A model generated the notes under the pieces. That model saw only the letters and a list, made by a program, of their open reading frames with translations. It ran no database searches and was not told where the DNA came from. Shown here in pieces: positions 7,327-59,482 of a stretch of DNA of 64,000 nt (position 1 is the first letter of the stretch; every line of letters begins with the position of its first letter). Source of the stretch: an uncultured Candidatus Saccharibacteria bacterium. GTDB lineage: Bacteria > Patescibacteriota > Minisyncoccia > UBA6257 > CAYRSR01. The stretch is from contig CAYRSR010000001.1 in assembly GCA_964427275.1 (NCBI GenBank), positions 20,394 to 84,393 of the forward strand, given 5' to 3'. A program made the translations under genes and the position numbers.

Positions 7327-7418
7327 AATAAAAATTAAATTAAGTTCCGACCTTTAAACATTAAATCTCATACTTCAATTATACCAAATTTTAAATCTGG
7401 ACAAAACACAATAGATTA

Positions 7419-8672
7419 TCAGCCAATCCAGTTAATCAAAAAATATTTTCTCTTTCCTCTTCTAACTAACAAGTACTTGCCAAACAATTTATCTGAAGGA
7501 AAGAGAATTTTGTGTAAATCTCCAACTACCTTTCCATTAATACAAATTGCACCATTTCTAACATCTTCTCTTGCCTGTCGCTTGGATGAACAGATTCCAG
7601 TTTTAACTAGCAAATCTAAAATATTTAATTGTTTTCCTGAAATATTACTTGTAGGAATAGTATCTTTAATCTGAGCTAAGTCTGATTTAGATAGCTGACT
7701 GATTTTTCCATAAAACAAATAATTCGATATTTTTCCAGCCTGTTTAGAAGCAGATTTTCCATGTACTAATTCAGTAACTAATTTTGCTAAGGTTCTTTGA
7801 GCCTCCCTTTTTTCAGGTTGATTTTTAACTTTTTCTTGTAAATTCAAGATTTCTTTCTTATTCAAAAAGGTAAAATACTTGATAAGCTTAATTACATCTC
7901 TATCATCAATATTTATCCAGAACTGATAAAATTGATAAGGTGAAGTTTTTTTTGCATCCAGCCAGATATTACCTGATTCAGTTTTTCCAAACTTGGTTCC
8001 ATCAGCTTTGACTAATAATGGTAAAGTTAAGCCATAAACCACTTTCTTGCATTTCTTTCTGATTAAATCTACCCCGGCAGTAATATTCCCCCACTGATCA
8101 CTGCCTCCAATTTGAAGTTCACAGTTAAACTTTTTATTTAATACCATAAAGTCGTATGCTTGCAGTAACATATAACAAAATTCGGCAAATGAAATTCCAG
8201 TAGTTAATCTACTTCTTATTGATTGTTTGGAAAGCATATAATTTACCTGAAACCACTTTCCAATATCTCTTAAAAATTCAACTAACTTAAGATTACCAAG
8301 CCAGTCGTAATTATTTATCAACCTAGCTGGATTAATTTTAGATTTAAAATCGAAAAACTTTTTAATCTGATTTTCAATTTTTTTGGCTCTCAGTTTCACT
8401 TCTTTTTCGGAAAGTAAGGGACGTTCTTTTAGCTTCCCACTAGGATCACCTATTAAAGCAGTACCCGTTCCAATTAAAATTATTGGGGTATGACCGTATT
8501 CTTGAAATCTTTTTAAAGTGATTAGTTGAAGTAAATTTCCTAAGTGTAAGCTCTCTGCAGTAGGATCAAAGCCAGCATATACCACAATTTTGCCCTGTTT
8601 TAATCTAGAAGGTAACCCTTCAGTTGCTTGATATATTAGCCCTCTAAATTTTAAATCTTCTAAAATGTTCAT
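7419..8672 (-). CDS. tyrS: tyrosine--tRNA ligase
   Basis: Class I HIGH-like HLGN and KMSKS-like KFGKT motifs, C-terminal S4-like domain. 417 aa. 4-bp overlap with metG. Confidence 0.9.
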   Translation of the reverse strand: MNILEDLKFRGLIYQATEGLPSRLKQGKIVVYAGFDPTAESLHLGNLLQLITLKRFQEYGHTPIILIGTGTALIGDPSGKLKERPLLSEKEVKLRAKKIENQIKKFFDFKSKINPARLINNYDWLGNLKLVEFLRDIGKWFQVNYMLSKQSIRSRLTTGISFAEFCYMLLQAYDFMVLNKKFNCELQIGGSDQWGNITAGVDLIRKKCKKVVYGLTLPLLVKADGTKFGKTESGNIWLDAKKTSPYQFYQFWINIDDRDVIKLIKYFTFLNKKEILNLQEKVKNQPEKREAQRTLAKLVTELVHGKSASKQAGKISNYLFYGKISQLSKSDLAQIKDTIPTSNISGKQLNILDLLVKTGICSSKRQAREDVRNGAICINGKVVGDLHKILFPSDKLFGKYLLVRRGKRKYFLINWIG

Positions 8673-12352: not shown

Positions 12353-12524
12353 AATATAAAAAATTTAAAATTAAAAAATCAAAATGCTATTAATTAATTT
12401 TCAATTATCAATTTTCAATTTTCAACATCCAACTTCTAACTTCTAACTTCTATTTGTAAATTCGTTGATTATTAGCAATTCGTAGATTGACATAACATTT
12501 GTAGGTTGGCATTATATCCATTAT
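12353..12524. repeat. dispersed intergenic repeat element, copy A (heptamer tract CAACWTC x4 followed by conserved TATTTGTAAATTCGTTGATTATTAGCAATTCGTAGATTG)
   Basis: Near-identical sequence recurs at 13770-13941 and 50658-50887, and in inverted orientation at 59195-59290. Confidence 0.8.
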
Positions 12525-13769
12525 TTACTTTATTATTTTCCCAAATTTTTCTATTTTTTGACCAGCCAAAATTTGAGGAATAATCTCAGCTAATCGATTA
12601 ATCTTTACTCTTATTTGGTTCATAGAATCACGGTCCCTTAAAGTAACATCCTGATTTTCAATAGATTCAAAGTCAACTGTAATGCATATTGGAGTCCCAA
12701 TTTCATCCTGTCTTCGATATCTTCTACCAATGGAATCTTTCTCATCATACTGAACCAAAAAATTTTCGGAAAGTCTCGTTTTAATTTGCTTAGCTATTTT
12801 AATTAACTGAGGTTTCTTAATTAAAGGTAGAACCGCTACTTTAACTGGAGAAAGTTTCGGATTCAATCTTAAAACTACTTCTATTTCCTTGGTTGGCTTG
12901 GTAGTCTTAGTTCTACCCCCCCTAACTTCACAATAAGCATCACATAACAAGGCTAAAAAAATTCTATCAATTCCGGAAGACGATTCAACAATGTAAGGTA
13001 ATGGCTGAGGAAAGTTTTGTCCTGAAAATTTTTGATGCTGTCTTAAATCGTAATCTCCACGATTGGCTATTCCCTCAATTTCCTTCCAGCCAAACGGAAA
13101 TCTATACTCTACATCTGTACAGGCTTTGGCATAATGAGCCAGCTCATCATTAGAATGTTCTTTTAATCTAAGATTCTCTTTTTTGATGCCTAAATTCAAA
13201 TACCAGTTTAGCCTTTCATTTCTCCAAAAGTTATAACATTTTTCTGCTTCAGATTCGCTTACAAAATATTCCAATTCCATTTGTTCAAATTCCAAAATTT
13301 TAATCAGAAAATGTTCAGGTGTTACTTCATTTCTAAACGATTTACCAATCTGAGCTATTCCAAAAGGAAGCTTCGCTCTTTGAGTATCCAGAATATTTAA
13401 ATAATTTACAAAAACTCCTTGAGCAGTTTCCGGTCTTAAGTAAATTAAATTTTTTTTCTGCTTTTCTCGATGATAGGTTTCAAACATTAAATTAAATGGC
13501 CGACCTTCAAACTCTTCAGTAAATAAAGTAGTATGTCCAGAAGCTTCCCATACCTTTTTATTCATAAAAATCGCTGCATCAAGTCCTACAACATTATCTC
13601 TCTTATAAACAATATCCTGCCACCACAACTTTTTAATATTGTTTTTTAACTCAACTCCCAATGGTCCATAATCATAAACTGCTGATAGTCCCCCATAAAT
13701 TTCTGAACTCGGGAAAATAAATCCTCTTCGCTTACACAAAGAAACTATTTTATCTAAGCTGTCTACCAT
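12525..13769 (-). CDS. glyQS: glycine--tRNA ligase (class II, homodimeric GlyRS-2 type)
   Basis: N-terminal IYGGLSAVYDYGPLGVELKNNIKKLWW and class II motifs. 414 aa. Confidence 0.85.
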   Translation of the reverse strand: MVDSLDKIVSLCKRRGFIFPSSEIYGGLSAVYDYGPLGVELKNNIKKLWWQDIVYKRDNVVGLDAAIFMNKKVWEASGHTTLFTEEFEGRPFNLMFETYHREKQKKNLIYLRPETAQGVFVNYLNILDTQRAKLPFGIAQIGKSFRNEVTPEHFLIKILEFEQMELEYFVSESEAEKCYNFWRNERLNWYLNLGIKKENLRLKEHSNDELAHYAKACTDVEYRFPFGWKEIEGIANRGDYDLRQHQKFSGQNFPQPLPYIVESSSGIDRIFLALLCDAYCEVRGGRTKTTKPTKEIEVVLRLNPKLSPVKVAVLPLIKKPQLIKIAKQIKTRLSENFLVQYDEKDSIGRRYRRQDEIGTPICITVDFESIENQDVTLRDRDSMNQIRVKINRLAEIIPQILAGQKIEKFGKIIK

Positions 13770-13941
13770 AGTTAATTTAAAATTAAAAAATCAAAAATCA
13801 AAATGCTATTAATCAATTTTTAATTTTCATTGAATTTTCAATTTTCAACATCCAACTTCTAACTTTTAACTTTTATTTGTAAATTCGTTGATTATTAGCA
13901 ATTTGTAGATTGGCATCATATATTTGCATTTTACATTTTTC
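13770..13941. repeat. dispersed intergenic repeat element, copy B
   Basis: About 90% identical to 12353-12524 over more than 110 bp, including the AAAAATCAAAATGCTATTAAT motif and the heptamer tract. Confidence 0.8.
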
Positions 13942-15123
13942 TTATGGTTTAGTCCAGCTAGTTTTAACATAAAAATCAGAAACAGTCTGACAATAATCAG
14001 AATCATTTAAATCTTCGGCTAAATTGGAACAATTAAACACAATCCAGCCACAGTTATCGGACCAAGCATAGCCATGAAAAATTCCTTCTGAATCAATAGT
14101 AACTTTATAGTTTGAAACAGTATCGCAAAAATCAGGGTCATTATGATAGTCTGCCATATCTGAACAATTAAACGATATCCAGCCACATTTTTCAGACCAG
14201 GCATAACCAGAAAGAACCCCCGTACTATCATTTAATACTCTATAATTAGAAACTGAGCATTCATTTTTATTTTTACAATTAAATGAAACTAGTCCATAAT
14301 TTTCTCCATAACCAAAGCCAGTAAGTTCATCTGTCTTTACATATACTCCATTTTCAACATCCATAGCTGTCATATCCAGCCAGCCAGCTATGTCAGACCA
14401 GGCATACTTATAAACTGAATCTATATTGGAAATAGATGGCGCAAGCCCTTGAATATAAATAGAACCTGGAATGGACAAATAGTCTATATTAGATGATGTA
14501 GCAAAAGAGAAACCAAAATCTTTTACCACCTGAACTTCTCCAAGTTGCTTTTCCCAGAATGACTGCCTGGCTATCTTATTTGTCCACCGAGTGAGAATGC
14601 TGACCATTCTCACTTTAGAAATTTGCTGAGCTTTCTTCCAGAACACTTCAACAATAATTTTTTGAGTAGAAGGATCTTCAGAACCCTCAGCTGGTTCCAC
14701 AATTTTCCCATTAACATCTCGATAAACATTTTCTACTGAAAAAAAACTATTAAACTTGGTTCCACCTATTTCTACTTCATCGATACCATCAACTACAACC
14801 AGTTCAGTACCACTGGTCTGGGTATGATACTTATAACCCATTCCTTTATTAAGTTGATAAATATTATTCCAATTACTTTCAGCTACTGTTTTCAGGTCAT
14901 CTATAAGCTGTTCGGCAATTGTGCTAGCAATTTGATGTAGCTTAGCTTCAAATTGAGAATGGAGAGCCATTACTACTGCAGTAATAGTTGCTCCAATTAA
15001 AATTGTCCCAATAGCTAAACCAATTAATACTTCAGCTAGAGCCTGTCCCTTATTTCTAAGTTTTAATACTTTGCATCTAGTACTCAATTTTTCCATTTTG
15101 ATGAATGGTAATAGAAATTTCAT
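13942..15123 (-). CDS. pilin-like protein with class III signal (G|QALAE) and C-terminal Cys-containing repeat modules
   Basis: Prepilin-like leader MKFLLPFIKMEKLSTRCKVLKLRNKG-QALAEVLIGLAIG with Glu at +5. Three repeats of about 45 aa, GYAWS..CGWI.FNCS. An alternative start ATG is at 15096. Confidence 0.55.
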   Translation of the reverse strand: MKFLLPFIKMEKLSTRCKVLKLRNKGQALAEVLIGLAIGTILIGATITAVVMALHSQFEAKLHQIASTIAEQLIDDLKTVAESNWNNIYQLNKGMGYKYHTQTSGTELVVVDGIDEVEIGGTKFNSFFSVENVYRDVNGKIVEPAEGSEDPSTQKIIVEVFWKKAQQISKVRMVSILTRWTNKIARQSFWEKQLGEVQVVKDFGFSFATSSNIDYLSIPGSIYIQGLAPSISNIDSVYKYAWSDIAGWLDMTAMDVENGVYVKTDELTGFGYGENYGLVSFNCKNKNECSVSNYRVLNDSTGVLSGYAWSEKCGWISFNCSDMADYHNDPDFCDTVSNYKVTIDSEGIFHGYAWSDNCGWIVFNCSNLAEDLNDSDYCQTVSDFYVKTSWTKP

Positions 15124-16760: not shown

Positions 16761-16906
16761 AATGTAAATTTAAAATGTAAAAATCAAAATGTAAAATGAC
16801 GATTTAAAATTCAAAATAGATAAATATTAAAATGATTTTGAAATTTGCTAATTTTAACATTTTGCATTGTAATTTTAATTTTTGATTTTTTAATTTTAAA
16901 TTTATA
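16761..16906. repeat. AT-rich imperfect palindromic intergenic element related to the AAAATGTAAAAATCAAAATG motif
   Basis: Left arm TAAATTTAAAATGTAAAAATCAAAATG and right arm CATTTTGCATTGTAATTTTAATTTTTGATTTTTTAATTTTAAATTTA are largely reverse complements. The motif recurs at 12373, 13785, 50875 and 59490. Confidence 0.4.
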
Positions 16907-19292: not shown

Positions 19293-19889
19293 CTAAATCA
19301 AATCCAATCCGGGGTCAGAACCAATTTCGTAAATATTAGAATTATCTCCTCCATCCTTGCCTTCCAGGTCGCTATACTTGGTGCTCTCCATATTGCAGTT
19401 CAACTCAAAAGTCAGGGTAGAAGAAGAACAACCAAAGATGTAATAAAAGCCACCATCAACCCCTTCACCATTACTGCTATCATCATTAACTGGATCTAAT
19501 GGTAAAGATGATAAAGGAGAACCGGCAGGAATATCATTTAGATTAATTGCTACCCAGCCGGTACCATCAGTGGTAATATCATTATCAGCAGCGCAAGTTG
19601 CAGACGTGAATCCACCATCAGTATCATCCTTCGCGTAAACATTACCACTTCCAGTTTTCCCAGTACATTTACAGGCAGATTCTCCAGATTTGGGCATTTG
19701 CGGATTAGACACTGATACTAGATACAAACTTAAAGCTGATTGAATACTCTTTAAATCAGACATTCTCTGAGAGTCTCTGGCTTCCTTGAGCATCTGAGCT
19801 GGATTCATTACTACCGCTATCGTGGTTGCTATAATTGCCAGAATTGCAATAACTATCAATAGCTCAATTAAAGTAAATCCCCTCTTCAT
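19293..19889 (-). CDS. type IV major pilin (PilA-like)
   Basis: Canonical prepilin N-terminus MKRG-FTLIELLIVIAILAII with Glu+5. The ATG at 19889 is preferred over the upstream GTG at 19901. Confidence 0.85.
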   Translation of the reverse strand: MKRGFTLIELLIVIAILAIIATTIAVVMNPAQMLKEARDSQRMSDLKSIQSALSLYLVSVSNPQMPKSGESACKCTGKTGSGNVYAKDDTDGGFTSATCAADNDITTDGTGWVAINLNDIPAGSPLSSLPLDPVNDDSSNGEGVDGGFYYIFGCSSSTLTFELNCNMESTKYSDLEGKDGGDNSNIYEIGSDPGLDLI

Positions 19890-19983
19890 CCTTTTTGTCA
19901 CTTTTTTCGACCTTTGTTATTATTGTAAAACAAATAATTACAAGAATCAATTGGGAATTTGTTTTTAAAAAAATTACAAGGAT

Positions 19984-26137: not shown

Positions 26138-26937
26138 AAACTTTCATAAATAAGCCTATGAAAGAAAAAAAAGAAAAATTGTGAGTGGATAAAATGGATT
26201 TTAATTACTCTTATTATTTATGTAGTGATTTATTTAATTTGTCCAAAATATGACTTTATCAGTAGCAGTGACAGAATGATATATGTATGTAATAAAATTA
26301 CTGGACAGTGCAGAAGAGCAACTAAGTATGATCGCCTCTGGTAAGATCTGAAGCTAAAGTCATCTGTTAGGTAAAGCCATTTCAGCTCTAAATTTAGGAT
26401 TTTCTCTGGAATTACTTAAAATCTTCTTAATCTGATTAATATAGTAGAGGATTTACTTCAGCTGTCTGAGCGATAATAGTTCTTAGAATCTGTCTTTTAA
26501 GTATACAATCTTCACAGTAACTTTCCTGAGTGACTACCAAAATTTTTAATTTACTTAAAGCAAAGCTCGCTTTAAGACCAATTGAGGAATTCATCTATAG
26601 ATGGGTTTGAAGGATAATTATATTGCCTATAAACCAAGCCAACATCAAGACTGCCATAGCTAACCCAGACTTTACTCACCTTTTTTAAGAAATTTTTTCA
26701 TAAAAATATATAATTGGCAAAATGCGTTACTACACAGATTAATTTTTTGTCAACTGGTCAAATTTTTAAAAATTTTTTGTAGGAAACATAATTTAGCAAA
26801 ACCTTATTACCAATTAATTTTTTGTTAAGCAGTTCAAAATAATTCAATGAACTATTAAACTATTTAAGTACTTGACTAGTTAGACACTTAAATACATTAA
26901 GAACAAAGAGTCAAATAATCAAAAATGAAAACCTGAA

Positions 26938-27489
26938 TTATCTACTCTGATTCAGATAAGCTTTCCTGATTAAATAGTAAAAAAGAGCAATGGTTATGAT
27001 AATTCCAAAAAGAACCTGCCAGCCAAAGTGCTGCTGTATAGTTAAACCTAATTTAGTTATTAGTAATACCAATCCCCCGGCAGTAAATACTCCCAAGCTA
27101 ATAGCAGAAAGAGCCTTTTTAAATGGAATACCAAATAAGAAGGCAATTAAACAACCAGTCCAGGCTCCGGTAACTGGAAGTGGAATAGCTACGAACAAAG
27201 CTAAAATCGGATGACCAAATTTTTTAATCTGTAAATTGTATTTTTTTCTAGTTCTTTTGAATAACCAGCTAAAAAATATTTCAAAAACTTTAAAATTTCT
27301 GGAAAGAAAATTAGTTATTTTTTCTAAAAATAGTAACAGAAAAATTACTGGAATTAAATTACCAGCTACAGATATTAAATAAGCAAGAACCGGATTTAAA
27401 CCATAAACTGTTAAAGCCACTGGAATAGAAACTCTTAATTCTCCAATTGGTGTCATAGCTAAAAGAAGAATTTTAATTAATTGATTCAT
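26938..27489 (-). CDS. small multidrug-export-like membrane protein (COG2426/Sm_multidrug_ex-like)
   Basis: The PIGELRVSIPVALTVYGLNPVLAYLISVAGNLIPV segment is typical of the family. The ATG at 27489 is preferred over the TTG at 27513. Confidence 0.5.
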   Translation of the reverse strand: MNQLIKILLLAMTPIGELRVSIPVALTVYGLNPVLAYLISVAGNLIPVIFLLLFLEKITNFLSRNFKVFEIFFSWLFKRTRKKYNLQIKKFGHPILALFVAIPLPVTGAWTGCLIAFLFGIPFKKALSAISLGVFTAGGLVLLITKLGLTIQQHFGWQVLFGIIITIALFYYLIRKAYLNQSR

Positions 27490-27556
27490 TTTTAGGTAGT
27501 GTAACAGAGTCAATTTCTAAATTAAAGTGGATTATGAACATATTCCCAACTATACT

Positions 27557-27600
27557 AACACCAACCACTTAAGTACTTAACTACTCAAGTACTTAAGTAG
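27557..27600. promoter_or_regulatory. 13-bp-stem hairpin / palindromic operator-like site between the Wzz-like gene and the downstream membrane gene
   Basis: AGTACTTAACTAC-tcaagtacttaa-GTAGTTAAGTACT, a perfect inverted repeat. The half-site AAGTACTT recurs at about 26870. Confidence 0.35.
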
Positions 27601-27741
27601 TTAAGTACTCAATCAAAACTCATAAAAACATCACATACAAATAAAAATAAGTAGGCGATAAAATAAGAATAAGAAAGTAGATGATTTACAATATTACCAA
27701 CACTTAGAGAAGATTATAAGTAATTACTTGGTAGAAATTTT

Positions 27742-32863: not shown

Positions 32864-33648
32864 CTTATATCTTTTGCTAGATAAGATTCCTTACGAGCAA
32901 AAAGAAAAAGACCAAAGCACAAGAATAAAAATCCTGCTCCTAAAGTTATCCAGATATAAAAAGTTGGTGGAATCCCTCGCACCAGTAAATTCTTGTAGGC
33001 ATTAAACAAAGCAGAAAATGGATTCAACATATATATTGGTTGTAGATGTTTTGGAATTCTATCAGCTACCGAATATAATCCCGGTGAAAGATAAAACCAC
33101 ATTCGCAAGCCAAACTGTAATATGTTTTGAAGGTCTCGAAAATATACCCCAAAAATTGCCAATATTAGAGAAAGACCTAGCGTAAAAACAAACTGAATCA
33201 AAACTACCACCGGTAGCCATACAAGATTTATAGTAAAGCGAGCATGAAACATAAAAAGCATGGGTAAGAGAGCAATCAAACTGAATAAATACTTCATAAA
33301 CCCAGTAACTACCTGTTGAGTAGGAAGTATTATTTTTGGAAAAGCTACGGCCTGAATAAGCTTTGCCCTGCTAGTAAGTGAGACAACGGATTGCTGTAAA
33401 GAATAAGTGAACCAGCGCCAGGCAAGTAGAGCAGAAAATAAAAGCACTGGAAACTGAGGACCTCCTCTTTTAAAGATATACTGAACCAGAATTACATATA
33501 CTACCATCATCATCAAAGGATCTAAAATACTCCACAAAAAACCAAAAAACTTGTTTTTGTAGGCAACTTTAAGATCAGACTTTACCAGAAACCAAAGTAG
33601 ATATCTCCAATTCCAAAGTTGTTTTACCGGTTGAAATAAGTTTTTCAT
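32860..33648 (-). CDS. wzm: ABC-2 type polysaccharide exporter permease (Wzm-like)
   Basis: 262 aa with 6 TM helices and the ABC-2 family pattern. Overlaps the stop of the GT4 gene by 4 bp. Confidence 0.8.
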   Translation of the reverse strand: MKNLFQPVKQLWNWRYLLWFLVKSDLKVAYKNKFFGFLWSILDPLMMMVVYVILVQYIFKRGGPQFPVLLFSALLAWRWFTYSLQQSVVSLTSRAKLIQAVAFPKIILPTQQVVTGFMKYLFSLIALLPMLFMFHARFTINLVWLPVVVLIQFVFTLGLSLILAIFGVYFRDLQNILQFGLRMWFYLSPGLYSVADRIPKHLQPIYMLNPFSALFNAYKNLLVRGIPPTFYIWITLGAGFLFLCFGLFLFARKESYLAKDIR

Positions 33649-35231
33649 AAGTTCTTATTTGTCAACTCAGAGTAAACTTTTAAAAGTTTCTTGGATTCGT
33701 TTTCCCAGTTGTAAATCTTAGCTGCTTTTTTTGCATTCTCTTTCATTTGTCGATATCTTTTTGGATTAGATAGAATAAAATCAATAGCTCTGGCAATATC
33801 CTCTGGGTCTTCTGGATTAAAAACTGCGCCAAGTTTATGCCCAAGTACAATCTTTCTTAATTCTGGAAAATCACTTGCAGCTACTGGTAAGCCAGCCATT
33901 AAATATTCAAACATTTTATTTGGAAGCCCGTAGTAATTGTTTAAGCTAACTTTCCGAAAAGGAATTACACCTAAATGTGCTTCTTTTGTAACATAGATTA
34001 GCTTATCAGGGGAAACTGGAGGAAGAAATATTACTTTATCATGTAATTCCTGATCAGTTTCAACAAAACTTTTAAGTTCACTTTCTAGTTTTCCCCAGCC
34101 AATCAATACCAGAATAATTTGTGAAAGAGAAACAAGTTTAATAGCTTTTATTAAATTAAATAAGCCTCGCCCAGGAGCGAATCCTCCTTGATAAATAACT
34201 ACTTTGAACTTATTGCTTACCGGGATAAATTTTCGGTTATAATGCTGTTGTTTGTTTTTTTTAGCAGCAACCGGACAATTCATAACTATAGCCGAAATAT
34301 TTAGGTTATATCTTTTTTCTAGTTGACCTGCAATTGAATGGTTAACTGTAATGATTCTGTCAGATTTACCTATAAGATTTCTTTCTATTATTCGTGCTAG
34401 AAACCTCTCCAGCCAATTTAGGCCAGTCTTTTCTGTATAGAGTTCATGTGAATCATATACCAGTTTTCCTCCTAATTTTTTCTTAGCCCAAAAAGCTATC
34501 GGTAAAGTATTTAAGTCATGAGCATGATAAATATCTGCTGGTTCTTGTTCTATAATCTTAAAACTTCGCTGGTAATAATCTAAAAACGACAAAGGTCTGT
34601 GGAAAATCATTAAAAAATTTCGAAGTAACCCATACAAAAAGAAATAGGTATGTTTTGCTGGATAATAAAATCCCCAGTAGAAAATTTTTTTTATACCTTT
34701 GTAGAAAAAGAAGCAGATACATTTTGCTGGATAATAAAATCCCCAGTAGAAAATTTTTTTTATACCTTTGTAGAAGTAATAACCTAATACTAAAGCCCAG
34801 CCTAAAGATAAAAAGTAACCCGGACAAGTTTTTAAAGATTTTCTAACATACTCTCTAAGTCCTTTTTCTTTAATAACCTGATTAAGTTTCTGAAATATTA
34901 ATCGCAGCTTGCCTACTGCTTTTCTTGTAACTGATTGAACTTTTACCGGTTGACGTTTCAACCGTGAAATAGAGCAATTTAAAAAACTCAAAAATTTTTT
35001 AGTAGAAGAAAGGATTCCTTTTAAGATTTTATAGTGAAGTGGGTTTTTAACCACTCGAATAATCCTAAACCCTTCCCTTTTTTCGTAAGGTTCTGTAGTT
35101 TTATCAAGCACGGCAATAATTCTTACATCGTATCCAGCTTCCGTTAAAGTCTTTGCTTCTTTTAAAACTCTAGCATCATGCTTACAGTTATTATATACAA
35201 ACATGCAGACTTTAATGTTTCTGAATGTCAT
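33645..35231 (-). CDS. GT4-family (group 1) glycosyltransferase
   Basis: C-terminal GT-B motif (GLPNKMFEYLMAGLPVAASDFPELRKIV). 528 aa. Contains an internal 69-bp tandem duplication. Confidence 0.75.
   Translation of the reverse strand: MTFRNIKVCMFVYNNCKHDARVLKEAKTLTEAGYDVRIIAVLDKTTEPYEKREGFRIIRVVKNPLHYKILKGILSSTKKFLSFLNCSISRLKRQPVKVQSVTRKAVGKLRLIFQKLNQVIKEKGLREYVRKSLKTCPGYFLSLGWALVLGYYFYKGIKKIFYWGFYYPAKCICFFFYKGIKKIFYWGFYYPAKHTYFFLYGLLRNFLMIFHRPLSFLDYYQRSFKIIEQEPADIYHAHDLNTLPIAFWAKKKLGGKLVYDSHELYTEKTGLNWLERFLARIIERNLIGKSDRIITVNHSIAGQLEKRYNLNISAIVMNCPVAAKKNKQQHYNRKFIPVSNKFKVVIYQGGFAPGRGLFNLIKAIKLVSLSQIILVLIGWGKLESELKSFVETDQELHDKVIFLPPVSPDKLIYVTKEAHLGVIPFRKVSLNNYYGLPNKMFEYLMAGLPVAASDFPELRKIVLGHKLGAVFNPEDPEDIARAIDFILSNPKRYRQMKENAKKAAKIYNWENESKKLLKVYSELTNKNL
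34653..34790. repeat. in-frame 69-bp tandem duplication (2 copies) inside the GT4 gene
   Basis: TTTTGCTGGATAATAAAATCCCCAGTAGAAAATTTTTTTTATACCTTTGTAGAA... repeated head-to-tail. Encodes FYKGIKKIFYWGFYYPAK(C/H) twice. Confidence 0.7.
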
Positions 35232-42299: not shown

Positions 42300-43367
42300 T
42301 CATTGTCTGAGTTCTTCAAACCATTGGTGAACCATTTTGAGACCTTCTTTGAGATCAACTTTTGATTGCCAGCCAAGTAATTTTTTAGCCAGAGTTATAT
42401 CAGCTCGAGTATGATAAACATCACCATCTCTTGGTGGTAAATATTGTTTTTTGCCACCAACTAAATCGGCTAGGTAATTTATTGAGTAGGATTTTTCACT
42501 GCTCATGTTAATTACTTCTCCCCCTTTTAGCTTCTCACTTTCCATTGCTTTAATAGTTGCATCAATTGCATCGTCGACATAACAAAATCCTCTGGTCTGC
42601 TTACCATCACCATAAATAGTTAATGGCTTACCTTCAATTTTTTGTTTTAAAAATTTTCCAATTACCAAACTGTATTCGGAATCAAAGTCAATTCTGGGCC
42701 CATATATGTTGAAGTATCGTAAAGAAATAATTGGTGTCCTATAAAGATTGGTAAATAGCTTAGCAAATTGTTCCCCAACTAATTTCTGTAAGCCGTAAGG
42801 ACTAACAGGCTCAGGGGTCATATCTTCTTTGAAAGGTAGTTTTTCTTGATTACCATAAACAGCCGAAGAAGAAGCAAAAACAACTCTCTTTACTCTACTC
42901 TCAGCTGAAGCCTTAAATACACTGATTGTTCCAAGAATATTAACCTTAGAAGTCCTGACAGGATCCTCAACTGAAAGAGGCACTCTTGGAATAGCTGCTA
43001 AATGAAAAACATAATCAACTTTTTGAAAAAGTGGTTTAATCTTATCAAAATTACAAATATCAAGTTCATAAAATTCAGCTTTAGGATTTAAATTCTCCCT
43101 TTTACCAGTGGATAGATCATCAATTACAATTACTTTATAGTTTTCTTTAATTAATCTATCTACTAAATGACTTCCAATAAAACCAGCACCACCAGTAACT
43201 AAGATTGTTTGATGTTTGAGGTTAGATGTTCGATGTTGGAGATTGGAAGTTGGAAGTTGGAGGTTGGAGGTTGGAGGTTGGAAGTTGGAGGTTTGAGGTT
43301 GGAAGTTTGACGTTTGATGTTGGATATTAGATGTTAGATGTTGGAGGTTTGATGTTTGATGTTTCAT
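42300..43367 (-). CDS. NAD-dependent epimerase/dehydratase (UDP-sugar 4-epimerase / UXS-like) with heptamer-repeat-encoded N-terminal tail
   Basis: TGGAGFIGSHL Rossmann motif and YxxxK. The first 54 codons, (H/Q)QTSN(L/F)Q repeats, are encoded by a (AACWTCY)n heptamer tract. Confidence 0.8.
   Translation of the reverse strand: MKHQTSNLQHLTSNIQHQTSNFQPQTSNFQPPTSNLQLPTSNLQHRTSNLKHQTILVTGGAGFIGSHLVDRLIKENYKVIVIDDLSTGKRENLNPKAEFYELDICNFDKIKPLFQKVDYVFHLAAIPRVPLSVEDPVRTSKVNILGTISVFKASAESRVKRVVFASSSAVYGNQEKLPFKEDMTPEPVSPYGLQKLVGEQFAKLFTNLYRTPIISLRYFNIYGPRIDFDSEYSLVIGKFLKQKIEGKPLTIYGDGKQTRGFCYVDDAIDATIKAMESEKLKGGEVINMSSEKSYSINYLADLVGGKKQYLPPRDGDVYHTRADITLAKKLLGWQSKVDLKEGLKMVHQWFEELRQ
43205..43364. 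repeat. tandem heptanucleotide repeat tract, about 23 units of GADGTTD (plus strand), within the 5' coding end of the epimerase gene
   Basis: Read directly: gatgttt gaggtta gatgttc gatgttg gagattg gaagttg gaagttg gaggttg gaggttg gaggttg gaagttg gaggttt gaggttg gaagttt gacgttt gatgttg gatatta gatgtta gatgttg gaggttt gatgttt gatgttt. Confidence 0.85.
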
Positions 43368-43753
43368 TGTTTTTTTAGATATCTTTTTAAACTTAATAAC
43401 TTGAAAAATAATTCATCGATTCTGGTGATGATTTGATTAAAGGTTATTTTAGATATGTATTTTAAATTCTCGGCAATAATACAACAAGCCTTTACCTCTA
43501 TCAAAGAACCTAATGCAATATCCACAAACCTTGCAAATTCTTTCTTGTTTCGCGCACTTCCTTCTGTAATATTCAATATCACTGAAATTGCCGCTCGTTT
43601 CAATTGAGCACCCAAAATGAATGTTTCTTCCTTAGGAAATTTTAAACTAAGATTGTAAATTTCCTTAAGTAATTCATTTGCTAACTTATAAACTTCTAAA
43701 TTTCCAAAATTATACTTCTGATACATAATTCCAACATCCAACATATCCAACAT
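43364..43753 (-). CDS. four-helix-bundle protein (23S rRNA intervening-sequence protein family, TIGR02436-like)
   Basis: 129 aa. YKLANELLKEIYNLSLKFPKEE...QLKRAAISVILNITEGSAR...EFARFVDIALGSLIEV is typical of the family. Confidence 0.7.
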   Translation of the reverse strand: MLDMLDVGIMYQKYNFGNLEVYKLANELLKEIYNLSLKFPKEETFILGAQLKRAAISVILNITEGSARNKKEFARFVDIALGSLIEVKACCIIAENLKYISKITFNQIITRIDELFFKLLSLKRYLKKQ

Positions 43754-43770
43754 CTAACATCTAACATCAT
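43729..43770. repeat. heptamer tract (CCAACAT/ATCTAAC x about 6), inverted orientation relative to 43205-43364
   Basis: ccaacat ccaacat atccaac atctaac atctaac atc spans the start codon of the four-helix-bundle gene and the stop of the upstream YqeY gene. Confidence 0.7.
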
Positions 43771-44281: not shown

Positions 44282-45277
44282 CTACTTTGTTTTTTCTAAA
44301 TACCACTTTAAAGTTTTTTCTAATCCTTCATCCAGACTGTACTTTGGTTCAAATTCAAGCTCTCTTTTAGCTTTAGAGTAATCTAGAGCAACTCGGCCAA
44401 CCTCACCTCTTTTTTCTGGAACATATATTTTGGCTACATCTATCCTGGTTAACTTTTTAATCTTATCAAATAAGCTATTTATGCTAGTCTCTACACCAGT
44501 CCCAATATTAAATATTCCAGTTTTATCTTTCTTTAAAGCTAAAATTGCAGCATCTATCGCATCGTCTATGTAAATAAAATCTCTAGTTTGAGTTCCATCT
44601 CCAATAATAGTAGGCTGCTCACCAGCTAGCATCTTTTTAAAAAATACCGAAATTACTCCAGCTTCAGCAGAAATTCCCTGTCTTGGTCCATAGACATTTG
44701 AGTAACGCAAGGAAATACTCGGTACCTGATATACTTCGCGATAATAGTCCAAGTACTTTTCTACTGCTAGCTTAGCCACTACACATGGAGCAATAGGTCT
44801 TTCTGGAGAAGTTTCAGGAGTAGGAATGACATCTGCTTCTCCATAAATTGCTCCACCAGTAGAGAAAAATATAAACTTAGAATCAGTAATTTCCACCGGC
44901 AAGAAATGTAAAAAATTTTTTAACACATTTAAAGAGCCCATAATATTTATCCGGGCATCCCAGTCAGGATTATCTAGCGACTTTCTTATATCCACCTGAG
45001 CAGCTAGATGGAACACTGTCTGAGGTCTTTCTTTTTTAAATATTTTGGAAATTTTAGGTGAGCAAATATCTACTTTATAAAAACTTGCTTTTTTGTTCAC
45101 CAGCTCTTTTCTTCCGGTAGAGAGATTATCAATAACTACTACCTTAAAGCCAAGTTCTACTAATCTATCCACCAGATGAGAACCAATAAATCCAGCTCCA
45201 CCAGTAACTAAGATTGTTTGAGGTTTGAGGTTAGACGTTGGATGTTGGATATTAGAGGTTTGATGTTTTTCCAGCAT
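44282..45277 (-). CDS. NAD-dependent epimerase/dehydratase (paralog) with short heptamer-repeat-encoded N-terminus
   Basis: MLEKHQTSNIQHPTSNLKPQT followed by ILVTGGAGFIGSHLVDRL. The ATG at 45277 is preferred over the ORF-track TTG at 45331. Confidence 0.8.
   Translation of the reverse strand: MLEKHQTSNIQHPTSNLKPQTILVTGGAGFIGSHLVDRLVELGFKVVVIDNLSTGRKELVNKKASFYKVDICSPKISKIFKKERPQTVFHLAAQVDIRKSLDNPDWDARINIMGSLNVLKNFLHFLPVEITDSKFIFFSTGGAIYGEADVIPTPETSPERPIAPCVVAKLAVEKYLDYYREVYQVPSISLRYSNVYGPRQGISAEAGVISVFFKKMLAGEQPTIIGDGTQTRDFIYIDDAIDAAILALKKDKTGIFNIGTGVETSINSLFDKIKKLTRIDVAKIYVPEKRGEVGRVALDYSKAKRELEFEPKYSLDEGLEKTLKWYLEKTK
45215..45268. repeat. heptamer tract (about 8 units: gtttgag gtttgag gttagac gttggat gttggat attagag gtttgat) in the 5' coding end of the second epimerase gene
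   Basis: Same unit family and the same adjoining 22-nt sequence (CCACCAGTAACTAAGATTGTTT) as at 43183-43206. Confidence 0.8.
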
Positions 45278-50657: not shown

Positions 50658-50887
50658 AATAGCAAATTCAAAATTTAAAAATTAAATTTTAAAATGATAA
50701 TTTAAAATTCAAAATTAGCAAATTTTAAAATTACACCAACCATAATAAAATTTAAAATTTAAATATTAAAATGCGATTAATCAATTTTCAACTATCAATT
50801 TCTAATTTTCATTGAATTTTCAATTTTCAACTTCCAACTTCTAACTTCTAACTTTTATTTGTAAACTGTCATTTTTCATTTTGATTT
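50658..50887. repeat. dispersed intergenic repeat element, copy D
   Basis: Contains GCGATTAATCAATTTTCAACTATCAATTTCTAATTTTCATTGAATTTTCAATTTTCAACTTCCAACTTCTAACTTCTAACTTTTATTTGTAAAC, matching copies A and B. Confidence 0.75.
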
Positions 50888-52387: not shown

Positions 52388-52939
52388 TTAAATTCGGTTC
52401 AATCCTGGCACTGAACCAATCTCGTAAACCTCATTATTATTTCCACCATCAGTACTCTCCACATCAGCACTTCCACCATTGCTGTACTTTGTACTCTCCA
52501 TGTTACAATTCAACTCAAAGGTTAACGGGTGAGTACCGGTAGCATTACTAGCAAATTCATAGTAATAACTACTATCATTAACTGGGTCTAGTGGCAAAGC
52601 TGATAAAGGAGAACCAGTTGGAATTGCATCTAAATTAACATCTACCCAACCATTACCATCAGTGGTTATAACGGTACGCTCAGTACAGCTAGTGTCTGCT
52701 GGTCCGTAACCAGTAGTTCCCTTAGTGCAATAATCATTGCCACTGAATGATGGATCAACTACCGATACCAGATACAAAGCCAAAGCTGACTGAATACTCT
52801 TTAAATCAGACATTCTCTGAGAATCTCTAGCTTCCTTAAGCATCTGAGCTGGATTCATCACTACCGCTATCGTGGTTGCCAGAATTGCTAGAATTGCAAT
52901 AACTATCAACAGCTCAATTAAAGTAAACCCTTTCTTCAT
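52388..52939 (-). CDS. type IV major pilin paralog
   Basis: MKKG-FTLIELLIVIAILAIL. The first roughly 60 aa are nearly identical to pilin 19293-19889, with a divergent C-terminus. 183 aa. Confidence 0.85.
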   Translation of the reverse strand: MKKGFTLIELLIVIAILAILATTIAVVMNPAQMLKEARDSQRMSDLKSIQSALALYLVSVVDPSFSGNDYCTKGTTGYGPADTSCTERTVITTDGNGWVDVNLDAIPTGSPLSALPLDPVNDSSYYYEFASNATGTHPLTFELNCNMESTKYSNGGSADVESTDGGNNNEVYEIGSVPGLNRI

Positions 52940-53009
52940 TTTTTTAAATTAAACTTCGACCTTTAATCTTATTATATCACAAATCAATTACTTGAATTGT
53001 GGATAACTT

Positions 53010-53387: not shown

Positions 53388-53902
53388 AAGTTAATAAATT
53401 TAATTTTAAAGTTTTTAAGCACTGCTAAATCCTTTTTTGGTTGCCCAAAGGAGTTTTGTTAGTTTTTAATTGATCCACGGACAGGTTCCCCTACCCGTGC
53501 CTTGTTACGACTTCATCCTGATCACCGAGCTGATTCTAGGTCCTTAAACAGGAACTTCGAACCCTCCCGGCTCTCCTGATGTGACGGGCGGTGAGTACAG
53601 GACTCGAGAACGTATTCACCGCGACATAGCTGATTCGCGATTACTAGCGATTCCGGCTTCATGAGGGCGAATTGCAGCCCTCAATCCGAACTGAGACTAC
53701 TTTTAAGAGATTCGCTCCGCCTTACGGCTTAGCAGCTCTTTATAGTAGCCATTGTAGCATGAGTGCAGCCCAGGGCATCAGAGGGCCATGCTGACTTGGC
53801 GTCATCCCCACCTTCCTCCCCAAAAATTGAGGCAGTTCCGCATGACACATATAACATGCAGTAGGGGTTGCGCTCGTTACCTCACTTAAGAGAACACCTC
53901 AA

Positions 53903-53934
<32 letters not shown>

Positions 53935-54175
53935 CTCCAATGTCCTTGAAGGAAGCCTCACCTTTCGGTAAGGTTTCATTGGAGTGTCAAGCCCTGGTGA
54001 GGTTCTTCGGTTATTGACGAATTAAGCCTCATGCTCCACCGCTTGTGCGAGTCCCCGTCTATTCCTTTGAGTTTTAACCTTGCGGTCGTACTCCCCAGGC
54101 GGTCTGCTTAACGCGTTAGCTACGCCACCCAGAGGGTCGATACTCTAGACAGCAAGCAGACATCGTTTAGGGCCT

Positions 54176-54209
<34 letters not shown>

Positions 54210-54441
54210 AGGCTTTCGGGTCTCAGAGTCAGGAGAGCCCCAGCTATTTGCCTTCGCCTTTGGTATTCCGCACGATATCAACGGATTTCACCCCTACACC
54301 GTGCGTTCTAAAAGCCTCTGGCTCCCTCTAGTTCGGTAGTTTCCGAGGCATTTCCCTGGTTGGGCCAGGGGCTTTAACCTCAGACTTACCGAACCTCCTA
54401 CACCCGCTTTACGCCCAGTAAATCCGGATAACGCTTAGGGT

Positions 54442-54476
<35 letters not shown>

Positions 54477-54889
54477 AACCCTTTATTCTCCACTTACCAT
54501 CAACATCTACTAAAAGGTAGATGCTTTTTCAGTGGAAAAAGCGGTTTACACTCCGCAGAGCTTCATCCCGCACGCGGCGTCGCTGGATCAGGCTTTCGCC
54601 CATTGTCCAAAATTCTCGACTGCTGCCTCCCGTAGGAGTAGGGCCCGTGTCTCAGTGCCCTTGTTGGAGAACAACCTCTCAGTCCTCCTACCCGTCATAG
54701 CCAAGGTGAGCCATTACCCCACCTTCTAGCTGATAGGCCGCAGGCCATTCCCATTCCGGCATACCATAAGATACACCTTTAATGACATCACTAAAAGTGT
54801 GTCATACTATCGGGTATTAGCCACCTTTTCAGATGGTTATCCCCGTGAATGGGGTATGTACCTACGTGTTACTAACCCGTTTGCCGCTC

Positions 54890-55210
54890 CCAGCCCCACT
54901 TTTTGGATTCAAATAAAGCATTTCTTAATTCTCTTGAAAAGTTCCTGTTTTGCACTCCCATAATGTTTTAATCTCTTTTCTCTTCTCTTCGCATCTTTTT
55001 TATTTCTATAAGCTTCGGCATAAATTAAAACCCACTTTCCATCTCTTCGGTAAGTGGCTTTTGTTTTTCCTTGATTATGATCTGTCAACCTCTTTTGAAG
55101 ATTTTTAGTTAAACCAATGTAAACTTGTTTTGTGACATTATGCTGAATTAGATAAACATACCACCACATAACCTTATTATGACTATTGAATCCAAAAAGT
55201 GAGGCTGGGC
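54890..55210 (-). other. intervening/insertion sequence within 16S helix 6, closed by a 23-bp stem and carrying an endonuclease ORF
   Basis: The exon sequence GCATGCAAGTCGTGCGC is interrupted by CCAGCCTCACTTTTTGGATTCAA...[ORF]...TTGAATCCAAAAAGTGGGGCTGG and then resumes at GAGCGGCAAACGGGTTAGTAACACGTAGG. The flanks are reverse complements, allowing one U-G. Confidence 0.6.
54909..55169 (-). CDS. GIY-YIG nuclease-superfamily protein (homing-endonuclease-like) encoded inside the 16S insertion
   Basis: YVYLIQHNVTKQVYIGLTKNLQKRLTDHNQGKTKATYRRDGKWVLIYAEAY matches the GIY-(x10)-YIG...R...E core. The ATG at 55169 has an AAGG SD. The ORF-track 5' extension to 55223 lies in the stem. Confidence 0.7.
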   Translation of the reverse strand: MWWYVYLIQHNVTKQVYIGLTKNLQKRLTDHNQGKTKATYRRDGKWVLIYAEAYRNKKDAKRREKRLKHYGSAKQELFKRIKKCFI

Positions 55211-55330
55211 GCACGACTTGCATGCCTTATCCACGCCGCCAGCGTTCATCCTGAGCCAAGATCAAACTCTCGTTTTGGGCAACCAAAAAAGAATTCAACC
55301 TGTTTAACTTTTAAAGGTACAACCACGTTA

Positions 55331-59119: not shown

Positions 59120-59194
59120 TGGCTTATCTTCCTCTCATAATTATAATTTAATTATAGTTATAATATTGCAACTGAAATAAATTATCAACCAATT

Positions 59195-59290
59195 TACAAA
59201 ATATGATGCCAATCTACGAATTGCTAATTATCAACGAATTTACGGATAAAAGTTGGAAGTTGGAAGATAGAAGATGACAAATATCTAAAA
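59195..59290. repeat. dispersed intergenic repeat element, copy E (inverted orientation)
   Basis: Its reverse complement, ...CCAACTTCCAACTTTTATCCGTAAATTCGTTGATAATTAGCAATTCGTAGATTGGCATCATAT, matches the conserved core of copies A, B and D. Confidence 0.75.
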
Positions 59291-59395
59291 ACTTATTAAC
59301 AGATTTCACGATCGTAAAAAATGTTAATAAACTGAATCTAGATGTAAATAATGGAATTTAAAAAATGAAAATTGAACTGATTTAAGTTTTAGTTC

Positions 59396-59440
59396 AAAAA
59401 AATTACGTAAAAAATTACGTAATTTTTTACGTAATTTTTT
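59396..59440. promoter_or_regulatory. 45-bp perfect palindrome containing three TTACGTAA boxes at 12-bp spacing
   Basis: AAAAAAATTACGTAAAAAATTACGTAATTTTTTACGTAATTTTTT, with boxes at 59403, 59415 and 59427. Confidence 0.5.
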
Positions 59441-59455
59441 GAATTCTTTTAAAAA

Positions 59456-59482
59456 TATAAGGACTTCGCAAGTCCTTATATT
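59456..59482 (-). terminator. rho-independent terminator downstream of the giant pilin-like gene
   Basis: ATATAAGGACT-tcgca-AGTCCTTATAT (11-bp perfect stem) followed on the minus strand by TTTTTAAAAG. Confidence 0.6.

Follow-up and report, generated by a model that had tools for sequence, protein, structure and literature searches.

The window analysed here, a stretch of 64,000 nucleotides, contains a 16S rRNA gene and a tRNA-Leu gene, and several of the gaps between its housekeeping genes are filled by copies of a non-coding module of about 130–170 bases. The genes flanking these copies are ordinary at all of the loci in the window. In one-genome-per-species data the closest GlyRS sequences share only about 55% identity with the one here and come from assemblies of Paceibacterota, Nealsonbacteria and Staskawiczbacteria. 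This points to a Parcubacteria-type (CPR) organism without a close sequenced relative; the nearest relatives of GlyRS and FakA in the GTDB one-genome-per-species set are at 59% identity or below.

Three copies lie on the minus strand at junctions between co-directional genes, where the element spans the entire gap from stop codon to start codon. The first (c1, 12353–12524) runs the full length of the spacer, from the GlyRS stop (12525) to the start of an M16-peptidase gene (12352); read on the plus strand it consists of an AT-rich arm (12353–12396), an AATTTTC tract (12396–12425), a YAACWTC tract (12423–12450) and a core (12451–12498) followed by a duplicated 19–20-nt core unit that extends to 12519. 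The second (c2, 13770–13941) occupies the spacer between the stop of a 393-aa ORF (13942) and the GlyRS start (13769), with the arm at 13770–13812, the AATTTTC tract at 13813–13848, the YAACWTC tract at 13846–13873, the core at 13874–13921 and a AAATGTAAAATG-type edge at 13922–13941. The third (c3, 50658–50887), between the AMMECR1 stop and the holA start, is composite: positions 50658–50745 are related to a palindromic spacer element, type II, the arm and the two heptamer tracts, AATTTTC and YAACWTC, follow at 50746–50855 (the latter at 50828–50855), and the core is reduced to 10 nt (50856–50865, TATTTGTAAA), with an AT-rich edge beyond this remnant that forms a 60-nt inverted repeat with 50659–50718. 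A fourth copy (c4, 59201–59278) is on the plus strand, with a pilin-like gene and fakA as its neighbors, and comprises a core (59201–59248) and a GAAGTTG-type tract (59249–59278, where the YAACWTC tract is reversed). It has no AT-rich arm, part of which is retained in its ortholog in a related metagenome contig (L003). The preliminary description had assigned arm, heptamers and core to every copy, which holds for c1 and c2 but not for c3, with its core remnant, or for c4.

There are fundamentally four modules: AT-rich arms with a period of 7, an AAAATTG tract, a GAWGTTR/YAACWTC tract, and a 45-nt core. Tandem Repeats Finder reports period-7 arrays in each spacer (AATTTTC, then AACTTCT/CAACTTC), and the GAWGTTR/YAACWTC tract has 4–6 units among the element copies, with 3–4 YAACWTC units counted at c1–c4. 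The core is the best-conserved part and is composed of three to four direct repeats containing ACGAAT, as WACGAAT units spaced by 18–19 nt; c1 and a further copy outside the window (c5) both carry a 19-nt duplication of a core unit. The spacers that hold the element have a G+C content of 12–21%. The differences between copies are mostly CpG-to-CpA changes within the ACGAAT motifs, and the three CpG sites of the core are all intact in c4, two of the three in L003 and in c1, and only one in c2, c5 and the copy shared by two other metagenome contigs (L001/L002). Five of the eight ACGAATT sites are inside elements, and outside them ACGAAT(T) is found at just a handful of scattered sites, so that we rejected it as a genome-wide motif.

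A 30-nt core probe matches exactly at 12451–12480 and 13874–13903, and with 3 mismatches at 59219–59248 on the minus strand, giving three matches in the window and none in 100 dinucleotide-preserving shuffles. A repeat finder aligns c1 with c2 at 93% identity over 89 nt, and each of them forms an 82–83-nt inverted repeat with the c4 region (59198–59280) at 83–84% identity. Over the 71 nt of core and heptamer tract, six copies are 85–96% identical. The window was extended on both sides using contigs of the same strain from other samples, and these reveal c5, some 2.4 kb beyond the left end of the window (L092, 5489–5627), and a diverged core-like piece to the right of the window (L090, about 7700–7760). 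The view of the preliminary description, that this is a dispersed intergenic family of at least four copies, is therefore upheld and its membership enlarged by c5.

The family was further compared among same-strain contigs, one strain at 96% identity (L085) and three related metagenome contigs (L001–L003). The core pattern has no match in the GTDB one-genome-per-species set or among viral contigs, and it is present in the three metagenome contigs; a search of other genomes, as originally recommended, thus drew a blank in the first of these sources and succeeded in metagenomes. The L001/L002 copy has the same arrangement as those in the window and lies at another locus in another organism, between a 167-aa ORF and a pgeF-like gene; its core and tract are 96% identical to those of c2, the two standing ahead of unrelated genes in different organisms. 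L003 carries the ortholog of c4, accompanied by the pilin-like gene found at c4, 94% identical at the 3′ end, and by two terminators, conserved hairpins, heptamers and core, and its core is back to back with an rpmF promoter where that of c4 is back to back with fakA. A profile built from six copies recovers all of the known copies and nothing else in about 110 loci.

Several short contigs, including L004 and L087, end inside the repeats, as would be seen if the family were an assembly artefact of collapsed or duplicated reads, and as is also expected because true repeats break short-read assemblies. The probability of an artefact is negligible. The copies differ from one another by 4–15% and have unique flanks at every locus; at least four samples yielded independent assemblies of the same strain, at 99.96–100% identity, with one contig from another sample (L088) spanning c3 completely at 99.96% identity; and related copies are present in other metagenomes. 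The family is genuine, lineage-restricted and non-artefactual, which disposes of two doubts raised at the outset, that the copies might be assembly duplications or be confined to this contig.

The orientation of the element is uniform with respect to the downstream gene. In c1, c2 and c3 the order on the sense (minus) strand is stop codon, AAATGTAAAATG-like edge, core, (GAWGTTR)4, (AAAATTG)n, AT-rich arm and ATG, and all five copies at co-directional junctions (c1, c2, c3, c5 and L001/L002) point the same way, an outcome with a two-sided chance probability of about 0.06. The sole exception is c4, which faces a conserved non-coding stretch ending in two terminators. The preliminary description had the copies occurring in either orientation and took this as an argument against their being promoters; the first statement goes too far and the argument drawn from it is not supported, since wherever there is a downstream gene the orientation is constant.

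Comparison with L085, which aligns with 4.4 kb of the window at 96.2% identity, provides a view of the spacers without the element. At the c1 site L085 has the same flanking sequence on both sides, through the stop codon region and over the last 38 nt ahead of the ATG. Between these flanks an interior of 133 nt, comprising the core and the YAACWTC and AATTTTC tracts, gives way to 105 nt of other AT-rich sequence. The same replacement is seen at the c2 site, where the GlyRS changes are synonymous only and the replacing sequence carries a nested 45-nt GC-rich hairpin. Both replacements are the type II palindromic element, one in each orientation. In the window, type II is present between pilB and pilC (16761–16906) as an AT-rich palindrome with 51-nt inverted arms, and it shares its outer arms with c1–c3. 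GlyRS-flanking spacers of similar style occur in distant Parcubacteria (L027 and L065), with A-rich/T-rich 7-periodic arms around AAAATG/CATTTT; across 80 distant GlyRS loci there are no YAACWTC-type heptamer tracts, and other period-7 arrays are present. Because the interior is replaced by type II at both c1 and c2 while the flanks are kept, the element is an exchangeable interior within a widespread kind of AT-rich palindromic spacer. Its absence from L085 at both of the comparable sites also indicates that the essential genes next to it can be expressed without it.

The position of the element ahead of genes raises the question of how it might be transcribed. Other spacers in this genome contain canonical TTGACA-17-TAnAAT promoters, often with an extended −10. 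TGnTAWAAT is enriched in spacers: of its 23 copies in the window nine are in the intergenic DNA that makes up 12% of the sequence, and eight of these nine have a same-strand start codon 5–91 nt downstream (the ninth, at 341–349, has none within the window); several are so near to the start codons that their mRNAs must be almost leaderless. Strong Shine-Dalgarno sequences precede only about 10 of 62 genes, and the genes downstream of the element have none, with anti-Shine-Dalgarno duplexes of +2.3 to +0.4 kcal/mol. At the upstream edge of the element the gene-sense strand has hexamers of the form TAAAAT/TATAAT, together with the near-matches TGTAAAAT, TGGATATAAT and TACAAT, though these edge hexamers only approximate the extended −10 of the genome, and equally good ones are found on the opposite strand (e.g. 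TTGACA-17-CATTAT at 12487–12515). A canonical sigma-70 promoter within the element was rejected, as the matches reach only 9 of 12 positions, occur on both strands, and are not consistent across copies. From the uniform orientation, the −10-like hexamer at the upstream edge and the lack of Shine-Dalgarno sequences in the downstream genes, we infer that the element most probably forms part of the mRNA of the gene that follows it, as an unstructured, purine/AU-rich 5′ leader.

It seems very improbable that the repeat encodes a structured small RNA or a riboswitch-like leader. It is intergenic, conserved and multi-copy, and the c4 region as a whole folds better than shuffled sequences (z −3.86), all of which would fit such an RNA, but the c4 score is due to terminator and palindrome hairpins that lie outside the repeat. 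On neither strand does c2 fold better than shuffled sequence (z −0.46 and −1.23), and RNAalifold applied to six copies gives a consensus of −2.6 kcal/mol with no compensatory pairs. At gathering score the only Rfam families in the window are 16S rRNA and tRNA, with none matching the element, and nothing meaningful is found around c4 at E≤10. With weak fold z-scores and no covariation, a stable or conserved RNA structure in the repeat was rejected, and with it the small RNA proposed in the preliminary description. The 16S rRNA itself has an odd 3′ end, in which an AU-rich stretch of 17 nt is inserted ahead of the anti-Shine-Dalgarno. The possibility that the AT-rich arm pairs with this insertion was considered and rejected, the predicted energies of −1.9 to −3.1 kcal/mol being no better than those of shuffles (z +0.3 to +0.6).

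The core also contains a small ORF, M(M)PIYELLIINEFTNKS, that is open from an ATG to TAA/TAG in each of the six copies and would encode 16–17 residues, M(M)PIY[EK]LLIIN[EK]FT[ND][KR]S. In c2 and L001 a −10-like hexamer lies 6–8 nt upstream of the ATG, as might be expected if a leader peptide were translated from a near-leaderless transcript. There are, however, several reasons to regard this as having a very small probability, and we rejected it. First, the variable sites fall mainly in first codon positions (4 first, 1–2 second and 2–3 third) and reflect CpG-to-CpA transitions within ACGAAT, so that there is no coding signature. Second, the stop is lost in c4 and the frame runs on, and the duplication in c1 and c5 gives a different frame from the first ATG. 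Third, there is no Shine-Dalgarno sequence. Finally, we estimate that, given the base composition here, an open frame of 16 codons would arise by chance with a probability of roughly 0.2.

The surroundings of c4 differ from those of the other copies. It lies back to back with a likely fakA promoter (TTGATA-17-TATTAT, minus strand, about 59150–59190), and downstream on the plus strand is a non-coding stretch of about 190 nt (59292–59482) that is conserved with L003 and contains two terminators. Within it are a hairpin (59292–59330) containing a TTTCACGATCG palindrome, a second hairpin (59373–59396), a ATTACGTAAT-repeat hairpin with a T-run (59397–59441), and a GC-stem terminator (59451–59482), and TTACGTAA palindromes recur just downstream of the c4 core. 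Comparison with L003 reveals no conserved ORF in the stretch. As there is no facing gene and no conserved ORF, and the hairpins and terminators are conserved, the c4 unit is a candidate orphan leader or non-coding RNA of about 240 nt. Since c4 and L003 retain core CpG sites and are followed by the conserved hairpins, this copy may be under selection for a function that lies outside the explanation we favor for the family.

Such retention at c4, with its downstream hairpins and recurring palindromes, is what would be predicted if the element were a portable regulatory module, in which the ACGAAT repeats and/or the heptamer tract are bound by a DNA- or RNA-binding protein that co-regulates the M16 peptidase, GlyRS, holA and pgeF-like genes and the c4 unit, with the c4 RNA possibly serving as a decoy in the manner of CsrB. 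The composition of the core, the best-conserved part, from repeated WACGAAT units is consistent with this, and binding by S1, Csp or CsrA has been proposed for TAACTGA heptamers (PMC4679880). We nonetheless consider it unlikely. L085 manages the same essential genes without the element, the CpG-to-CpA changes in the putative sites fit decay and not constraint, the 18-nt spacing is mismatched to the helical repeat, and no candidate binding protein was identified.

The heptamer tracts connect the element to a different kind of locus in the window. Between yqeY and an epimerase gene on the minus strand is a PF05635 ORF (43364–43726), which codes for a 23S rRNA intervening-sequence protein of the four-helix-bundle type. 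Directly upstream of it is a 5′-type array of five heptamers (43727–43768, sense GATGTTR), and on its other side is a 3′-type array of 22.6 units (43206–43363, sense YAACWTC) in inverted orientation relative to the first. The 3′ array constitutes the first 53 codons, in frame, of the epimerase ORF (42300–43367), which has no other start codon ahead of the Rossmann motif, and a solo 3′-type array of 7.6 units (45216–45268, also on the minus strand) forms the N-terminus of a second epimerase paralog (44282–45277). The two arrays around the PF05635 ORF pair in the predicted fold, with a mismatch about every seventh base. We refer to the whole (43206–43768) as a putative selfish gene cassette. The tracts of c1–c5 belong to the heptamer family, and have the orientation, of the 5′-type cassette array.

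Homologs of the PF05635 protein at 42–80% identity were traced to contigs, and inverted short tandem arrays flank every PF05635 ORF examined. The ORFs of P0130, P0136 and P0145 are in glycan operons immediately upstream of an epimerase or glycosyltransferase gene, their stop codons overlapping or abutting the start of the next gene. More distant homologs include two ORFs in an ABC-transporter operon (L109), one of which overlaps the following gene, and one beside cobalamin-related and radical-SAM genes (L112). The arrays are of the GAKGTTW/YAACMTC type in four homolog groups (P0130, P0136, P0145 and P0158, the second L109 ORF), with others consisting of the 8-mers TGCTTGAA/TTCAAGCA in one ORF and GTCATAA/TTATGAC in another. 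A profile search finds the element core at none of the other PF05635 loci. The heptamer common to elements and cassettes is no coincidence of base composition; the link to the epimerase N-terminal tracts noted in the preliminary description is real and extends to the inverted arrays around PF05635 ORFs.

This link could be a functional one, if (GAWGUUR)n transcripts (the leaders of c1–c5 and the c4 RNA) acted in trans as 5′ arms, pairing with the (YAACWUC)n of epimerase mRNA to give RNase III substrates or a block to translation, as the arms of an intervening sequence (IVS) would in cis. Predicted duplexes between the c1–c4 tracts (sense) and the 5′ arrays of both epimerases have energies of −23 to −30 kcal/mol (z −3.6 to −5.8), with the cassette's own 5′ array reaching −45 to −48 kcal/mol; the 3′ array has 22.6 units against five in the 5′ array, leaving most of them without a partner in cis; and inverted-repeat IVS stems are cut by RNase III, with heptameric repeats at the 5′ end of the Coxiella IVS (PMC4990558). 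Complementarity is, however, an automatic outcome of a shared heptamer family, the stems are mismatched roughly every seventh base, and the other PF05635 loci are devoid of the core, so that we regard such trans-acting RNAs as quite improbable.

The gain or loss of one or two heptamers in the first epimerase would bring a stop at codon 44–54 and three units would keep the frame, a layout that matches that of a slippage-controlled contingency gene; tract length is identical in three assemblies. It is a long shot, but a single heptamer 'zip-code' system derived from IVS-type elements could unite the epimerase tracts and the PF05635 cassette with the c4 unit and the dispersed elements. In such a system either (GAWGUUR)n RNAs would pair in trans with the greatly expanded (YAACWUC)22 of surface-glycan epimerase mRNAs or the four-helix-bundle protein would bind both arrays, and slippage of the in-frame array would switch the epimerases on and off. 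If this were true, it would provide a function both for the long-enigmatic S23p/PF05635 family and for intergenic heptamer repeats.

The explanation that we favor, and of which we are about half convinced, is that the copies belong to a lineage-restricted, non-autonomous, mosaic spacer element that spreads through exchange between spacers, is transcribed as a 5′ leader, and has a tract that is kin to those of the IVS-like cassettes. The element sits within AT-rich palindromic spacers, between housekeeping genes that run in the same direction, and copies would have moved or been exchanged between spacers, probably by recombination or gene conversion through the common AT-rich arms, with transposition by a trans-acting enzyme as an alternative route. 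Replication slippage would alter the length of the heptamer tract. The element would share a transcript with the downstream gene, forming its leader without a Shine-Dalgarno sequence, and expression of that gene would not require it. As to its origin, we infer that it may have arisen from, or be handled by, the same process based on heptamer arrays as the PF05635 cassettes.

CPR genomes of the Parcubacteria type are small and tightly packed, so that spacers of 150–230 nt whose modules can be exchanged and vary between strains stand out as a source of micro-diversity, as well as being a cause of assembly breaks. A single heptamer family here connects the heptanucleotide arrays of genes lacking Shine-Dalgarno sequences, the AT-rich palindromic spacers of Parcubacteria, and the S23p/PF05635 cassettes of glycan operons, and the PF05635 cassette also gives the gene that follows it an N-terminal extension read in frame. 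Should the links prove functional, they would make the roles of PF05635 proteins and heptamer arrays open to testing; otherwise the family would still serve as a strain marker, and as a warning to annotators, since gene-calling programs convert the tracts into ORFs and N-terminal extensions.

Several known systems have features in common with this family. The S23p-type IVS of Coxiella burnetii has an S23p ORF with variable-number tandem heptamers just upstream of its start, terminal inverted repeats, and excision by RNase III (PMC4990558). The cassette at 43206–43768 resembles it in having a PF05635 ORF, heptamers just upstream of the start, inverted ends able to form a long stem and a variable repeat number, and departs from it in lying not in 23S rRNA but in a glycan-biosynthesis operon (the yqeY-epimerase mRNA), and in having its 3′ array translated as the N-terminus of the next gene. 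The elements c1–c5 differ from an S23p-type IVS in that they have only the 5′-type array and no PF05635 ORF.

TAACTGA heptanucleotide repeats are present in Beggiatoaceae, cyanobacteria and Bacteroidetes, directly upstream of start codons that lack Shine-Dalgarno sequences (PMC4679880). Both types consist of tandem 7-nt units (2–6 copies) in the forward direction upstream of the starts of unrelated housekeeping genes without a Shine-Dalgarno, with some within ORFs, and those described here have at least three tandem units, a forward orientation, downstream genes without Shine-Dalgarno sequences, and a variable copy number. The arrays here differ in that they belong to a longer element, which is dispersed and has a core of its own, in that they usually lie 60–110 nt from the start codon, and in that the heptamer also makes up the inverted arrays on either side of a PF05635 gene. 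Cyanobacterial STRR repeats and long simple sequence repeats are further examples of intergenic heptanucleotide-type arrays.

Near-identical upstream regions reused before unrelated genes have been described as promoter reuse or putative mobile promoters (PMC3575422). The element is like these in placing similar upstream regions before non-homologous genes (M16 peptidase, GlyRS, holA and, in L001/L002, pgeF-like), and is unlike them in that its hexamers are only near-consensus, c4 has no downstream gene, and promoter activity is putative.

The preliminary description had likened the repeats to REP or MITE-like elements, and the two parts of this comparison fare differently. REP and REPIN sequences are similarly dispersed and extragenic, and the type II relative is partly palindromic, but the element has no GC-rich imperfect palindrome of 20–40 nt, and no RAYT-like transposase match was found in the scanned ORFs of the window. 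With no such palindrome, spacers so low in G+C, and no stable hairpin in c2, membership of the REP class was rejected. The likeness to MITEs is closer: the element is small (about 130–230 bp), non-coding, AT-rich, multi-copy and intergenic, with presence or absence between close strains, nested insertions, and internal tandem repeats of variable number. Copies are dispersed over non-orthologous sites and polymorphic, with five in about 70 kb in addition to those in L001–L003, and with L085 lacking them at c1 and c2. A MITE with embedded tandem repeats, a minisatellite-bearing MITE, is known in Porphyromonas gingivalis (PMC4596501). No clean terminal inverted repeats or target-site duplications, of the kind that delimit MITEs, were found for the element. 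Inspection of its ends reveals a weak low-complexity match (AAAATGC.A.TA, about 10 of 13; AAAATGC...GCATTTT), and AT-rich inverted arms of 51–60 nt are present in c3 and type II and not in c1, c2 or c4; no target-site duplication was seen, and comparison with the L085 sites indicates that the interior was replaced, where a simple insertion would have left the flanks duplicated. A scan of about 40 ORFs in the window found no transposase. The gene-uniform orientation, the exact filling from stop to start, and the shuffling of modules between copies are also unlike a MITE. The element is probably mobile, MITE-like and non-autonomous. Although the ends and transposase that define MITEs were not found, the family has MITE-like behavior, and on the sequence comparisons presented here it is a mosaic, strain-variable spacer element of a Parcubacteria lineage.

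A second type of spacer element (type II), palindromic and AT-rich, is present at 16761–16906 in the window and at 461–655 and 1868–2011 in L085, a metagenome contig of a sister strain that is 96.2% identical to the window over 4.4 kb, and look-alikes are found at the GlyRS loci of distant Parcubacteria (L065 5335–5475; L027 3878–3995). The arms of this element are composed of AAAAATC/AAAATG units, it repeatedly separates co-directional genes, and it swaps places with the reported mosaic intergenic repeat between strains. It is a possible AU-hairpin terminator that would work in both directions. At approximately 570–614 of L085, a GC-rich 45-nt hairpin (CTGCCCGCCAATCGCCTGACGGCTCAAGGCGTCTGGCAGGCGGG) is inserted precisely into a type II element as a nested small insertion, at the position in the sister strain of c2 (the copy of the mosaic repeat at 13770–13941), and its GCCTGCC-type stem resembles those of terminators in the window. 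The 5′ end of this contig (1–950) is chimeric, with segments matching window positions 9748–9678, 13625–13418 (reverse) and 13574–14236 (forward) ahead of the main collinear block, and comparisons with L085 were restricted to its locally contiguous parts.

Hairpins are also present 3′ of c4 (the copy at 59201–59278). The first, around the palindrome TTTCACGATCG(T/G)GAAA, is conserved between the window (59292–59482) and L003 (7690–7830), a metagenome contig containing the c4 ortholog; in addition, the 10-bp palindrome ATTACGTAAT is present in two or three copies, which make up a hairpin that has a T-run. These could be operators in addition to terminators. Other phyla have heptamer arrays of their own directly 3′ of GlyRS (L067 5298–5327 and 7552–7581; L069; L030 5301–5360), with the unit AGTAGAC in Zixibacteria and the units GTTCATA and ACACTGA in contigs labelled Planctomycetales, so that arrays of heptamers in spacers are widespread, with a sequence specific to the lineage.

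An extended −10 motif, TGnTAWAAT, lies just 5–13 nt upstream of several start codons (45285, 46960, 61635, 19213 and others) and the majority of genes lack a Shine-Dalgarno sequence, which together imply that leaderless or near-leaderless mRNAs are frequent in this organism. LemA and two pilin-like genes share the motif AAAGGTCG(A/G)A 10–20 nt upstream of their starts (7340–7360, 19905–19925 and 52945–52965, all minus strand), a candidate special ribosome-binding or regulatory site. The 16S rRNA gene (53463–55277, minus strand) contains insertions, since it spans 1815 nt as against the 1533 positions of the model, and an ORF of 104 aa (54909–55223) lies within it. Its 3′ end (near 53440–53475) reads GGATCA-ATTAAAAACTAACAAAA-CTCCTTT, where a stretch of 17 AU-rich nt separates helix 45 from the anti-Shine-Dalgarno sequence, and the processing stem GGGCAACCAAAAAAGG comes next.

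Other repeats are found elsewhere in the window. The N-terminal halves of two pilin-like genes with the N_methyl motif (19371–19901 and 52481–52945) are 80–88% identical in DNA, which points to gene conversion or duplication in the recent past. ORF 33645–35231 contains a 69-nt tandem duplication (34633–34770; 91–92% identical). The spacer 27514–27741 contains 5.4 copies of the 8-mer ACTTAAGT (27567–27612), which with 26853–26891 constitutes a 39-nt inverted repeat whose arms bracket a small multidrug export gene (26938–27513).

Two epimerase paralogs on the minus strand, 42300–43367 and 44282–45277, have at their very start heptamer arrays that are read in frame, with 22.6 and 7.6 units respectively, and translated into ..HQTSNL.. 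repeats. Neither gene has an alternative start codon ahead of the Rossmann motif, and gain or loss of one or two units leads to a frameshift and a stop at codon 44–54; these are thus possibly slippage-controlled (phase-variable) surface-glycan genes. Array length is the same in three assemblies.

Short inverted tandem arrays also flank ORFs encoding PF05635, the 23S rRNA intervening-sequence (IVS) protein (S23p/four-helix bundle), both in the window (43206–43768) and in contigs L093–L108, L109 and L112; the units are 7-mers or 8-mers and differ in sequence between cassettes. In three homolog groups the ORF is in a glycan operon, immediately 5′ of an epimerase or glycosyltransferase, and its stop overlaps or abuts the start of the next gene; the L109 ORFs are in an ABC transporter operon and that of L112 in a cobalamin/radical-SAM operon. 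A further heptamer array, GTCATCA/GTCATAA (8.6 units; L093 2208–2274 and L095 908–974), sits about 350 nt into the epimerase gene 3′ of the cassette in one homolog group (P0130), and past it contigs of different samples diverge. Between genomes in which housekeeping proteins reach no more than 59% identity, the PF05635 proteins are 66–80% identical, a pattern that suggests a mobile cassette resembling an IVS, situated within mRNA operons.
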